IMG/VR virus record: IMGVR_UViG_3300025358_000032
Coordinates: 1 to 30,583 of that record
Length of the DNA stretch: 30,583 nt
Source of the DNA: a virus
Taxonomy: Duplodnaviria > Caudoviricetes
Reading direction: 5' to 3' (one strand)
Shown: positions 19,357-28,111 of the stretch, one piece after another
How positions within the stretch are numbered: position 1 is the stretch's first letter
Layout of the letters: each line of letters starts with the position of its first letter
The notes under the pieces: generated by a model
Databases searched by the model: none
Seen by the model: only the letters and a program-made list of their open reading frames with translations
What the model was told of the DNA's origin: nothing
Made by a program: the position numbers and the translations under genes

Positions 19357-19392
19357 TTGACAATGTTATACATTGTATTAACTTGTTATACG
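19357..19392 (+). promoter_or_regulatory. Sigma70-type promoter with overlapping palindromic operator
   Basis: TTGACA-16 nt-TAACTT. The spacer holds the inverted repeat CAATGT-TAT-ACATTG, with another TGTTATAC downstream. Confidence 0.6.
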
Positions 19393-22355: not shown

Positions 22356-22608
22356 CTTTCTTAATTGTATAGAACTTAGTGGCTACGCATCTGTTATTAC
22401 TGCGTATATGCCTATACATTTTACATTCTAGTTCACCACGTATTACCCCACGTTCTAATATGCCTACAGCCTTATCTAGGCTTACTTTAAACTTATGTGC
22501 ATATTCTCTGGCTGATATAGCACCTTCTGGTGGAGTCTCTGGAACTTGAGTCTCGTTAAACTCATTCCACATCTTTTCATAGGAGTCTTTGCCAATAGTA
22601 ACTAGCAT
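22333..22608 (-). CDS. Putative winged-HTH protein
   Basis: 'AISAREYAHKFKVSLDKAVGILERGVIRGEL' has wHTH spacing; overlaps the phosphoesterase stop. Confidence 0.55.
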   Translation of the reverse strand: MLVTIGKDSYEKMWNEFNETQVPETPPEGAISAREYAHKFKVSLDKAVGILERGVIRGELECKMYRHIRSNNRCVATKFYTIKKVKPRHRR

Positions 22609-23420
22609 TGTACAACTTTTGCTTTTGGTGGATTAAAGGATCTAAAGTGTACCTCTGGTAACTCTCCTTCTTTTTTGTTACGCCAATCTAAAATGTATAT
22701 ACTAGGACAAGGTCTGCCGTCTGGTACTACTTTGAACCCAAACCGAGTAAGACCTTGCCATGCACCAGTAACGACTGTGAGACGATTACCATCGCAATAA
22801 TGACCAGTCCTATGGCGGTGAGCACCCACAATAATATTAGGAGGAGTATCGCCCACTCGTACAGCCTCATTAACTGCATTACCCAGTTGGATCGTATGTT
22901 GTGATGCTTCAAGATAACTCCTACTTGTTGTTGGGAAATGATGCCTAACTGACATCAAGTTTCCCATAATATTTAAATCTAGTCTGTCGAAGATCGGGAT
23001 TTGCGTTTCAGGGTTTTTTTCCGCTTTGAAGATTTTACCGAGGACCGTTTCGTACCCTTTGACGTGACATTCAGTTCCTTTGATAAAATAAGATTTTGTG
23101 GCTTTGGCACATACTCCTCCCAATACGGTCTCTGCGATACGGAGATGTTCTCCCTCATTAGGTGTAACGATTTCAATAGTCCTGTGATGGTTTCCTTCAA
23201 TGCAGTCACCATTGACGATAAGGCAATGCGGATCTTTTCCGAGTAACTTTGTTTTGTATTCATGGGCATAAATCCAACATTCCCATAGCCACTTTTGCAA
23301 TGGGTTTTGCTTAATCTCATTACCTTCTTCAGTAACAAAATCAGGAGGCAGTAAGCCTACAGTAGATCCACAATGTAGGTCTGAAATAATAACTGCGGTC
23401 TTAATCTTGGCAGAGGCCAC
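22602..23420 (-). CDS. Calcineurin-like metallophosphoesterase (GTG start)
   Basis: Motifs 'SDLHCG', 'NGDCIEG', 'KGTECH', 'VRHH', 'GAHRH'. Confidence 0.85.
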   Translation of the reverse strand: MASAKIKTAVIISDLHCGSTVGLLPPDFVTEEGNEIKQNPLQKWLWECWIYAHEYKTKLLGKDPHCLIVNGDCIEGNHHRTIEIVTPNEGEHLRIAETVLGGVCAKATKSYFIKGTECHVKGYETVLGKIFKAEKNPETQIPIFDRLDLNIMGNLMSVRHHFPTTSRSYLEASQHTIQLGNAVNEAVRVGDTPPNIIVGAHRHRTGHYCDGNRLTVVTGAWQGLTRFGFKVVPDGRPCPSIYILDWRNKKEGELPEVHFRSFNPPKAKVVQC

Positions 23421-24365: not shown

Positions 24366-24524
24366 ATGAATAACAAAGTAAATGAAATGCCGTCCTTTGA
24401 TAGCTTCTTTGAAAGCCTACTTAGGACTCAGTTAATAACAACAAGTGATATCAACCAAGATCCTGTTACTTATAAAAAGACAGGTAATGACGTAAACCCA
24501 AATGAGGATATTAAGAATGACTAA
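24366..24524 (+). CDS. Small hypothetical protein (52 aa)
   Basis: MNNKVNEMPSFDSFFESLLRTQL...; overlaps the next start. Confidence 0.45.
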   Translation: MNNKVNEMPSFDSFFESLLRTQLITTSDINQDPVTYKKTGNDVNPNEDIKND

Positions 24525-25284
24525 CGAACTCGCCACAACCACTAACCAAGCACAGTTAAACCACCGCCAAGCTACTGATGTAGCTGGCCTATGCCGTGAT
24601 ATAGTCGTAAAGACTTCTCAGCCCATACAAGGCCGTAAATACGTACGTGTTGAAGGCTGGCAGTCTATTGCAGCAGCACATGGCTGTATAGCCTCAATAG
24701 ATAGTGTGACTGAGACTGACGAAGGCGTTATAGCAGTTGCTTCCCTTCTTGATTCGTCTGGCAATGTAAGGGGCAAAGCAGAGGGCTACGTAGGCAAAGA
24801 TGAAAAGCTCTGGGCAGCACGCCCAAAGTATGCACAGCGTGCTATGGCTCAAACCAGGGCTATTAGTCGTGTGTGTCGTAGTGCTTTCGCTCATGTAGTT
24901 GTATTAATGGATGCAGGGTTGGAAACTACACCAGCAGAAGAAATACCAGTCGAGTCAGAAACACCAGTTGCTGAGGCTAAACCTGTAAAGTCTTATACTC
25001 CAGCACCTAAGCCTGTACAGGAAGTTGCACATACTGAGGCATCAGATGGTGAATCATGGCGTACTGCTATAATACATTTTGGTAAAAACAAAGGTAAGGC
25101 TTTAGGTTATTTACCAGAGAATACGCTAAGATGGTATCAAAACGAATGGCAGCCACAACCTTGGCAAGGCGAGATGAAAACATCAGATTTAGAACTACGT
25201 GCAGCACTTGACGCTTCAATGGGTAAGACCGCCACACAAGAAGAAGTAAACCTAGATGAAGAAGTTGGTGAAGTACCGTTCTAA
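24517..25284 (+). CDS. Putative single-strand annealing/recombination protein with FGK..G C-terminal domain and acidic PF tail
   Basis: 'IQGRKYVRVEGW' and 'AMAQTRAISR..R' SSAP-like core; 'IHFGKNKGKALGYLP...LRWY' domain; ends DEEVGEVPF; neighbours gp157 and RusA. Confidence 0.65.
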   Translation: MTNELATTTNQAQLNHRQATDVAGLCRDIVVKTSQPIQGRKYVRVEGWQSIAAAHGCIASIDSVTETDEGVIAVASLLDSSGNVRGKAEGYVGKDEKLWAARPKYAQRAMAQTRAISRVCRSAFAHVVVLMDAGLETTPAEEIPVESETPVAEAKPVKSYTPAPKPVQEVAHTEASDGESWRTAIIHFGKNKGKALGYLPENTLRWYQNEWQPQPWQGEMKTSDLELRAALDASMGKTATQEEVNLDEEVGEVPF

Positions 25285-26381: not shown

Positions 26382-26515
26382 ACTATGGAAATACAGATAC
26401 CCACGTACCCAAATATGTAGCAGAAAAGAATGAACAGGATGCAAAGATTAAAGGCTTTATGCTTGGCCTAATAATCGGTGCGGTACTTTCATACCTTTTC
26501 ACGTTAGTAAAATGA
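26378..26515 (+). CDS. Small membrane protein (45 aa)
   Basis: MNYGNTD...KGFMLGLIIGAVLSYLFTLVK*; ATGA overlaps on both sides. Confidence 0.55.
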   Translation: MNYGNTDTHVPKYVAEKNEQDAKIKGFMLGLIIGAVLSYLFTLVK

Positions 26516-26658
26516 ATCTATCCTACACAGAAAGATTTATTATTATTGTTGGGATAACTATCTCGGTAGTTATCCTTTCAATAGGCACAAGTTATTACAT
26601 AGCTCATCACCAGCCTGTAATTAACTTTAATTTACAAAACAAAAAACCTAATCAATGA
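26512..26658 (+). CDS. Small membrane protein (48 aa)
   Basis: MNLSYTERFIIIVGITISVVILSIGTSYY...; ATGA overlaps on both sides. Confidence 0.55.
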   Translation: MNLSYTERFIIIVGITISVVILSIGTSYYIAHHQPVINFNLQNKKPNQ

Positions 26659-27083
26659 CACCGTATGAGTTCCAGGCGTTACTCAAAGCAGCTTCAAAAG
26701 ACTTCCATAGGCTTAACAGTGGAACTACAACAGAAGTATCTACCAATAATAAACCTAAAGCCAAAAAAAATAAGTCTATGGCTAAAAGGTTACGTACCAC
26801 CATCACCGAACCAGATATACGGCAGTCATTGGAGCAAAGCCCACAAGCTGAAACACTCAGCACAACAGGCACTGCTAGACGCATACGTGTCAAGTTCACT
26901 TGCTGGAGGAAGCGACTCCTTGATACCGACAACAAGTTTGGCTCAATCAAGTATTCATTAGACGCATTACGGTATGCAGGTCTATTAAAAGATGACCGTG
27001 AATGTGATATAGAACTGATCGTAGAACAAATCAAATCCACTAACGATAGGGAAGGTACTTCTATCGATTTAGAATACTATTGA
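26655..27083 (+). CDS. rusA: RusA-like Holliday junction resolvase, catalytic half
   Basis: 'RVKFTCWRKRLLDTDNKFGSIKYSLDALRYAGLLKDD' gives the DxDN...K...DAL..AG...DD catalytic signature; its own N-terminus lacks the usual PPSxN element. Confidence 0.8.
   Translation: MTPYEFQALLKAASKDFHRLNSGTTTEVSTNNKPKAKKNKSMAKRLRTTITEPDIRQSLEQSPQAETLSTTGTARRIRVKFTCWRKRLLDTDNKFGSIKYSLDALRYAGLLKDDRECDIELIVEQIKSTNDREGTSIDLEYY
26665..26961 (+). CDS. Nested +1-frame ORF encoding a RusA-like N-terminal element
   Basis: 'ISLWLKGYVPPSPNQIYGSHWSKAHKLKHSAQQALLDA' resembles the RusA strand-1/PPSxN/helix-1 region. Confidence 0.55.
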   Translation: MSSRRYSKQLQKTSIGLTVELQQKYLPIINLKPKKISLWLKGYVPPSPNQIYGSHWSKAHKLKHSAQQALLDAYVSSSLAGGSDSLIPTTSLAQSSIH

Positions 27084-27094
27084 CAATGTTATAC

Positions 27095-27129
27095 AAAACA
27101 ACCCTACTATCATTAAGACAGTAGGGCTG
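27095..27129 (-). terminator. Probable terminator of the minus-strand late/lysis operon
   Basis: CAGCCCUACU/AGUAGGGUUG 10-bp stem (G-U pair works only on the minus strand) followed by UUUUGU. Confidence 0.5.
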
Positions 27130-27165
27130 CATATTGATGCCTGATCTCTGGCAGGGGATCGTCTT

Positions 27166-27193
27166 AACCTCAGTCGTATAGACTGGGGTTTTT
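27166..27193 (+). terminator. Terminator of the plus-strand early operon or of a small RNA
   Basis: AACCUCAGUC-GUAUA-GACUGGGGUU then UUUAUUU. Confidence 0.7.
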
Positions 27194-27407
27194 ATTTCAA
27201 ACGCCAAGTGGCGTAAAGCGTTAATAACGAAAATCCTAAAAAGATTACCAAGACTACTTGGCCTTTAAATCCTTCTAATACGGTTACTCTTCCATTAGTT
27301 TTAATTGTTTGCTCTTTAATCTCTGCAAGCACTTTGTCTTGATTGTCTAGACGCTCAAAGAGTCTAGCAAAGTTGGAGTCGTGTGATTGTGGATTAAATT
27401 CGCTCAT
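27192..27407 (-). CDS. Small coiled-coil protein with C-terminal TM (XhlA/holin-like)
   Basis: 'RLDNQDKVLAEIKEQTIKTNGRVTVLE' followed by a hydrophobic helix. Confidence 0.6.
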   Translation of the reverse strand: MSEFNPQSHDSNFARLFERLDNQDKVLAEIKEQTIKTNGRVTVLEGFKGQVVLVIFLGFSLLTLYATWRLK

Positions 27408-28111
27408 ACCATACCTTTGGTTTTAAGTAGAGCGATGTAGGTGTCAAGAGAATGATACCTTACTAAGTTATAATCATTGACCTTTCCTTCATTTAAAACA
27501 ACTGGATCGCCTATGTGCATCCAAGCCTGATTAAAAGCATACATAGGAACTTGTGTCACTACGTCATAACGTACCGCATAACGTACGACTTCTGACAATA
27601 AAGCCTTAGCACAATTAGCAAATACTTCATCACCACATTTAGGTGAACCAAAGGTAACAAGTGTTCTAGCTTGTATTTCAGTAGCTAGGAGCGTAGCTAA
27701 AGCACCACCAAGGCTATGCCCAGCCACGATAAGGCTATCAGGATCGAGTTTCTTACGCCAAAGGGTATCATCACCCTCTTTTGTCTGTAAATGCAAATAT
27801 AGGCCAAAAAAGCCTTCATGTATCTTACCACTGCAAATAGGTATAGCTGATGTGAACTTAACGTCTAGATCATTAGCCCATTCGCTCCATGCTTCTGTAC
27901 CACGAAATATAACTACCTGACCTTGATCTTCAGCATTGGCTATAAAACCGTATGGTCTCATGCCATCTTTATCTTTACTGTATAGTACGTCAACTAACGT
28001 GTAACCTAAATCAGATAGATCTATAGTAGTAGGATCTGCAAGTTGTGGTAACTTGTAGGCTTTATTGCAAAGCAGTGCTATGACTATATCAGACGGTCTA
28101 GTGTAACTCAT
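27404..28111 (-). CDS. Class 3 lipase (alpha/beta hydrolase)
   Basis: 'VIFRGTE...EW..DL', 'KIHEGF', nucleophile 'AGHSLGGALATL', 'TFGSPKCGD', 'DVVTQVP', C-terminal 'HSL..Y'. Confidence 0.92.
   Translation of the reverse strand: MSYTRPSDIVIALLCNKAYKLPQLADPTTIDLSDLGYTLVDVLYSKDKDGMRPYGFIANAEDQGQVVIFRGTEAWSEWANDLDVKFTSAIPICSGKIHEGFFGLYLHLQTKEGDDTLWRKKLDPDSLIVAGHSLGGALATLLATEIQARTLVTFGSPKCGDEVFANCAKALLSEVVRYAVRYDVVTQVPMYAFNQAWMHIGDPVVLNEGKVNDYNLVRYHSLDTYIALLKTKGMV

Follow-up and report, generated by a model that had tools for sequence, protein, structure and literature searches.

Introduction

Most overlapping genes encode proteins unrelated to each other, or share DNA just at their ends. Phages also make programmed -1 frameshift fusions, for example those of the tail assembly chaperones, in which the upstream part of the product is read in one frame and the downstream part in the -1 frame. 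To our knowledge, a layout in which one of two partner chains is nested within the gene of the other has been shown before for only a few other proteins.

The published account on which we draw here describes the resolvase RusA as a sheet of four strands plus two helices; its catalytic residues are D70, D72, K76 and D90/D91, while DNA is bound by R69 and N73 and also contacted by residues 13-16 (PMC1636454). Our references for the E. coli enzyme were the structures PDB 1Q8R, 2H8C and 2H8E, the Pfam family PF05866 and the PHROG families phrog_34 and phrog_1682. The small (beta) chain of M.EcoHK31I lies wholly in another frame of the gene for the alpha chain and supplies the conserved part that alpha is missing, both chains being needed (PMC2836561). 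Rz1 of phage lambda is embedded in the +1 frame of Rz, and the two products are found in one complex; gene callers usually overlook the embedded gene (PMC6139136).

The window considered here is the whole stretch of DNA analysed, 30,583 nucleotides of a phage record (IMGVR_UViG_3300025358_000032). An initial annotation of its letters proposed that a RusA-like gene is divided between two nested reading frames, which we call A and B. Rather than encoding unrelated proteins, the overlap here brings two halves of one small enzyme domain into the same DNA, and dozens of divergent copies show which residues each frame keeps.

Results

Layout and setting of the locus

The locus lies on a 30.6-kb phage contig. 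Its minus strand carries the genes for terminase, portal and capsid, and its plus strand a methyltransferase, Gp157 and small early genes, a block that ends with the split RusA pair. The sequence is listed for 24 DNA runs from freshwater and lakes, of which three are possibly the source of the record, and for no RNA run. All parts of the pair are on the plus strand. ORF A (26655..27083) encodes 142 aa, a leader followed by the catalytic half of a RusA-like resolvase, as judged from a PHROG match, homologues, profile-profile comparison and a structural model. ORF B (26665..26961; 98 aa) is in the +1 frame, fully nested in A, and encodes the front half of the RusA fold according to profile-profile comparison. 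Upstream, and in the frame of B, is a 48-aa ORF (26512..26658) whose TGA overlaps the ATG of A (ATGA) and stands 6 nt 5' of the ATG of B. The frame coordinates, the ATGA coupling, the 6-nt spacing and the position of a run of eight adenines (A8; 26763-26770), directly 5' of the first strand of B, are all as originally claimed. Both the ATGA with its open upstream B-frame ORF and the placing of the B start are found in 7/7 loci of the surrounding clade (73-100% identical; hereafter the own clade).

Residues 3-20 of A (26661..26714) are modelled as two short helices and carry the leader motif, ASxxFxxxN. Residues 21-76 (26715..26882) have no predicted secondary structure and appear from substitution counts to be a passenger of the coding of B, yet they are kept stop-free. 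Residues 77-142 (26883..27080) would supply the catalytic helix and three strands, and correspond to residues 52-117 of E. coli RusA in the profile-profile comparison and the model. The catalytic residues of A are D90, D92, N93, K99, D103 and D114 (26922..26996), equivalent to RusA D70, D72, N73, K76, D80 and D91. In B, alignment and profile-profile comparison place the first strand (26770-26793), the PPSPN loop (26797-26811), an HW pair (26827-26832) and a basic helix within residues 36-74 (26770..26886). The helix of B ends at 26886 and the RusA-like strand of A starts at 26883, which bears out the claim that one half stops where the similarity of the other begins, near 26880. What remains of B is a tail (26887..26961) that is short and, by substitution counts, unselected in the own clade; stop positions put it about 35 codons below the length seen in most relatives.

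Leaders of A recur in several forms. ASxxFxxxN is present in 31/149 representatives compared with 0.6 in shuffles, and other members among proteins P0011-P0159 have different recurring leaders, MxW[TS] in 11 and a GYxxxDGxY-like motif in 6.

Contigs from 8/8 sequencing runs, one of which may be the source, carry substitutions and no indel relative to the record, five of them spanning the stretch in one piece, and the database homologues of A at 63-94% identity are all 142 aa long (10/10). The split layout is therefore due neither to chance nor to an assembly error, in keeping with the initial annotation's argument against a lone indel and with the finding of the same layout in 152/157 related loci (below). 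We consider the split of this RusA-like gene across nested frames to be confirmed.

Assignment of the two halves

The reference profile for the complete domain was built from 31 aligned intact single-frame RusA-like genes, and it matches E. coli RusA (1q8r, residues 6-116; E 1.5e-9). When compared with this profile, an alignment of B (80 rows) places B 33-77 on residues 1-44 with a probability of 94.6, and an alignment of A (80 rows) places A 73-142 on residues 50-120 with a probability of 99.3. All of the RusA catalytic acids sit in A, whilst strand 1, the PSxN loop and helix 1 sit in B and are absent from A, and no single frame of the locus holds both halves. D90, D92, K99, D103 and D114 of A are invariant in the 80 alignment rows, some of them being selected for by the patterns used to fetch the loci, and D90, K99, D103 and D114 are invariant in 139 proteins. 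RusA has an arginine-rich loop, with R69, before its first Asp; A possesses R85, K86 and R87 there, and the position of R69 in E. coli RusA is a Leu, as it is in the intact relatives L003, L011 and L362.

Library searches bear mainly on A. Its second half alone matches two RusA PHROGs (residues 70-125 and 50-127; E 3e-5 and 2e-4), and B has no match in the Pfam or PHROG libraries. The search of each frame against PF05866 that had been proposed as a check gave no match above cut-off for either A or B, and this family weakly matches 3/139 A-type proteins; the Pfam model is insensitive here, since only 9/31 intact controls match it at E 0.01. As a database query B alone retrieved no homologue. 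A profile of B found 27 called proteins of 72-167 aa, so B is sometimes called as a protein in its own right by gene callers; the same profile found no PHROG and no recurring Pfam family. The A-family profile found no match among PDB sequences.

The model of A (pLDDT 84.5, pTM 0.50), locally confident for 77-142, has two short helices within residues 3-20, lacks secondary structure over 21-76 and forms its three strands and catalytic helix within 77-140. Among 48,161 chains its best match is 1q8r, residues 52-117 (Z 5.2, rmsd 3.0, 65 aligned), tied with the next row at 4.5. A Foldseek search of the PDB placed RusA (2h8c) at rank 9 with E 0.29, and returned no match at E 0.001. As modelled, A would lack one of the four strands and one of the two helices of the RusA fold.

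Occurrence of the layout in related loci

When a profile was made from A together with close homologues, it matched 1036 clusters at 50% identity, in part of which the layout was checked; for the best 150 of the 1036, most among the matches listed share the anatomy of A. We fetched 376 loci with patterns and profiles of A only, of which 358 match the profile of its catalytic half; 234 of these are distinct and 231 have enough upstream DNA for frames to be scored. The N-half profile used in this scoring was built solely from the 31 intact genes. Among the 157 loci that reach at least 45 bits, the best-scoring frame is +1 in 152, frame 0 in five intact genes and +2 in none, and 137 of the 152 score above 5 bits with the N-half profile. 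In each of the 74 loci that score lower, most of the training genes being among them, frame 0 is best. One check put forward earlier was whether homologous loci keep both frames open with PPSxN in +1, and this is what is seen, with 152/157 loci best in +1 and, in 68 divergent loci, a single stop against 157 expected (see below).

Longer flanks were available for 138 split loci, which reduce to 85 below 75% nucleotide identity and 82 that could be anchored; leaving out one that was mis-anchored gives the 81 divergent loci used hereafter. PSxN stands exactly 37 codons before the first Asp of A in 69/82 anchored loci and at 41 codons in seven, this locus included, whereas intact genes mostly have 50-58 codons between the two. 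Independent database proteins of sufficient length agree, in that a +1 P-S-x-N is permitted at -37, -38 or -41 in 87/123 (at -37 in 69), and at offsets from -36 to -29 in at most 1 of the 123.

Two genome matches lie in Chthoniobacterales assemblies and are prophages, and in the phylum of genome G001 a match was found in 2/401 genomes, one being G001 itself. From a reading of its ORFs, the relative L373 has the split pair between replication-loader-like and terminase-like genes. Annotated phages gave one weak match only, to an intact single-frame gene. At the end of another contig (L028) a partial repeat of the middle of the split gene seems to precede the full copy, which may be terminal redundancy or an assembly artefact.

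Selection on both frames

Stops in the overlap were compared with a null in which the residues of A are held fixed and synonymous codons redrawn from pooled codon usage, or in which B is held fixed in the same way. The 81 loci share ancestry, and the counts that follow are not independent events. From codon -49 to +20, the +1 frame of 68 loci contains 1 stop against 157 expected, and the A frame beneath the core of B contains 1 against 96 expected in 69 loci. Controls show no such depletion: the third frame has 294 stops against 261 expected and 196 against 169 expected, and intact genes (n=31) have 82 +1 stops against 95 expected, with 2/31 open.

Individual residues of B are also kept. In 69 loci the P, S and N of its motif are retained 66, 67 and 69 times (17, 32 and 30 expected) and a K 61 times (30 expected), and a Leu at the helix end (-9), which shares its codons with strand 2 of A, is found in 66/69 (20 expected). 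B reaches codon +27 or further in 79/81 loci and meets no stop before +43 in 71/81, running to just 5' of the stop of A, which gives about 100 doubly coding codons in most relatives. Over the catalytic helix of A, and outside the RusA fold, a second B motif has Leu in 54/68 loci (12 expected) and Tyr in 43/68 (10 expected). In most split loci, L373 (2861-3223) among them, the tail of B over that helix thus holds a selected motif with the consensus AxxTLASY, and a basic end; both are absent from the own clade.

Within the own clade, synonymous and non-synonymous changes divide 45:18 in B and 2:62 in A over A codons 39-71, beneath the core of B, and 31:12 in A and 4:43 in B over A codons 85-100. 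Judged by these stop, residue and substitution counts, selection acts on both frames across dozens of divergent phages.

Starts and predicted assembly

B has an ATG of its own in 78/81 loci, against 31 expected at 2% per codon, and in 16 it stands directly before strand 1. A start for A upstream of the PSxN of B is present in 81/81, as an ATG in 70. The ATGA of the A frame forms the upstream stop of B in 34/81, with at least 33 open codons before it in 24. A Shine-Dalgarno sequence at the start of B, seen in two loci, did not prove general, being no more frequent before the ATG of B (12/78) than before flanking starts (39/153), and no stable RNA structure is found at the starts (z 0.9). Coupling to the downstream gene was seen for the stop of B in 7/10 and for that of A in 4/10, against 29/70 in the control.

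Modelling of the two products as a complex, which had also been suggested, did predict an interface, but with a weak score: A 68-142 with B 28-98 gave 0.40 against 0.09 for the best control, with contacts agreeing to at least 92% between runs and a partner pLDDT of at least 57. The mark used is reached by 116/157 solved and 2/215 mismatched pairs, and at 0.60 or below by 18 solved pairs and both mismatches. The alignments used were our own, and two halves of a fold that is already solved may pass simply through their likeness to it. Support from the model for a complex of A and B is weak.

Other features of the contig

Several further features of the contig are recorded here in their own right. 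A 120-nt element (27081-27200) lies right 3' of the stop of A, between converging genes. It is 89-93% identical in clade members, compared with about 73% for their gene, and folds with z -4.0, with terminator-like hairpins at 27098-27130 (minus) and 27166-27190 (plus). It has no Rfam match, and parts at 27111-27171 are common to other, deeper contigs in 8/8 runs; it may represent a structured RNA, or else a regulatory element that is shared. An exact 15-mer that begins with a -35-like hexamer occurs at 27081-27095 and at 19358-19372, the latter copy being in the gap between divergent gene blocks. On the minus strand, 27404-28111 encodes a class 3 lipase (Pfam E 3e-23) adjoining a 71-aa, possibly holin-like ORF, and 22602-23420 is a 272-aa ORF within the plus-strand block with no Pfam or PHROG match. 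On the plus strand, upstream of Gp157, 24502-25284 encodes a 260-aa protein matching phrog_19042, a family of unknown function (E 9e-54); our guess is that it holds the place of a strand-annealing protein.

Discussion

We consider it likely that A and B are each translated from a start of their own, and that the two chains together build one RusA fold. On reaching the end of the upstream 48-aa gene, ribosomes would restart at the ATG of A or at that of B, 6 nt downstream, a step suggested by the layout itself, namely the ATGA overlap and the 6-nt gap. The strand contributed by B would complete the three-stranded sheet of A, with the helix of B packing beside that of A, and a pair of such A+B units would make up the RusA dimer. 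This dimer may cut four-way junctions, either ahead of packaging or in the course of recombination-dependent replication. With one half nested in the other, the two would be expressed together and could not be separated. By analogy with RusA, we infer that A and B together would show Mg-dependent junction cleavage as a dimer.

The initial annotation offered either a two-chain overprinted enzyme or unconventional recoding. The former is favoured by selection on both frames, the starts of B and the geometry of the overlap, and the latter by neither of the candidate signals, since neither the A8 run nor heptamers are conserved. In one form of recoding, translation would begin at the ATG of B and move by -1 into the frame of A at about 26880-26890; the product would be a single fused RusA chain, possibly accompanied by free B, and the leader of A would stay untranslated. 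The order and frames of the halves fit such a shift, and in the own clade, where the long tail of B is lost, the halves meet almost end to end; four extra codons lie between them, and helix end and strand overlap by about one codon. Given that the halves barely overlap and the tail is short there, a frameshift is less excluded at this locus, and the geometric argument rests more on the relatives: in the -37 majority the helix end of B and strand 2 of A share codons, and a single frameshift cannot supply both. However, there is no canonical -1 heptamer at the junction (X XXY YYZ in the phase of B, B codons 60-85), as was noted from the start, nor in 7/7 own-clade loci, and slippery heptamers are not enriched across the 81 loci (6/81 in the phase of B compared with 6 and 9 in the others). 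Stable RNA structure is likewise absent at the junction (z -0.8 and +0.4), which is the most variable stretch of both frames in the own clade. A fused chain would be without the helix-strand linker and 13 codons shorter than intact genes here, or about 17 in most relatives. A also stays open under B, which has a chance of 0.012-0.036 per own-clade locus and is matched family-wide by the 1 stop against 96 expected. We therefore regard a -1 fusion as improbable. Alternatively, translation might begin in A and slip into B at the A8 run, by the ribosome or in transcription, with or without a switch back. The run does directly precede strand 1 of B, but it shrinks to A5 in 4/7 close relatives, runs of A7+/T7+ are present in 5/81 relatives, B has its own ATG in 78/81, and a return shift meets the same overlap problem. 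The A8 run, put forward earlier as a possible switch from A to B, is on this pattern of conservation unlikely to be a recoding signal, and we regard slippage there as very improbable.

The remaining alternatives concern what the chains do, or whether they are made at all. A may be active alone, or may not be a nuclease, with B an accessory, specificity or inhibitory subunit that possibly checks a host-toxic nuclease. Such a role would sit well with the presence of every catalytic residue in A, with the local confidence of the model for 77-142 and with the second selected motif that B has outside the RusA fold in most relatives. It sits less well with what B keeps, namely the very strand, loop (PSxN) and helix that intact RusA has, where the region of S13/N15 touches DNA, and with an A that would be one strand of four and one helix of two short; we give it little credence. 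An assembly error or a recent pseudogene can in practice be dismissed, given the lack of any indel in 8/8 runs, the layout in 152/157 loci and selection on both frames.

A tree bearing on the origin of the layout was built from 71 columns of 50 of the 81 split rows and 33 intact rows, and has long branches. All 50 split rows fall in one supported branch of 56 rows together with six intact genes; the tree contains five changes between split and intact labels, and the one-clade test gave p-AU 0.114, a value drawn from few columns. We tentatively suggest, as one possible history, that an ancestral RusA folded back once into about 100 codons holding two chains in two frames and spread to hundreds of phage lineages, with the leader of A and the second helix of B recruited to control the assembly or activity of a host-toxic nuclease. 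With intact single-chain relatives and dozens of natural copies to hand, it becomes directly testable whether deep same-strand overlaps arise through fission of a gene and not through de novo birth. The layout would also account for many 'truncated' or uncharacterised phage proteins whose partner ORF callers mostly miss (1036 clusters, with the layout checked in part).

As in E. coli RusA, the locus has the D-x-D-N...K...D...D set, in A, and the strand-PSxN-helix front half, in B, and the pair is located among phage recombination and replication genes. It differs in having two nested frames in place of one ORF, no single polypeptide holding the whole fold, and in placing PSxN 37-41 codons before the first Asp rather than about 54. 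There are also three extra residues between the N and the K, a Leu at the position of R69, and the additional leader of A and tail of B.

As far as the sources cited above cover them, two other systems come close in layout. The C5-methyltransferase heterodimer M.EcoHK31I likewise has a second chain nested in the gene of the catalytic chain; it has another fold and reaction, its arrangement was shown biochemically where ours is read from sequence, and the nested RusA layout spans at least 85 divergent loci. The Rz/Rz1 spanins resemble the locus in having a second gene in the +1 frame with its own starts and under selection, which here is seen in the sequence. They are membrane lysis proteins, however, whereas the halves here belong to one globular enzyme domain that also occurs, in relatives of the same fold, as an intact single chain. 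Unlike programmed -1 frameshift fusions, the locus has no conserved slippery site, both frames remain open far past the junction, and the essential parts overlap. A search of the literature, conducted mostly at the level of titles and abstracts, brought up no account of RusA in split or nested form. Both the RusA enzyme family and the nested two-chain layout were already known, and what appears to be new, in that we found no earlier account, is the nested layout for RusA. By analogy with these systems, the split locus may work like RusA whilst being laid out like M.EcoHK31I.
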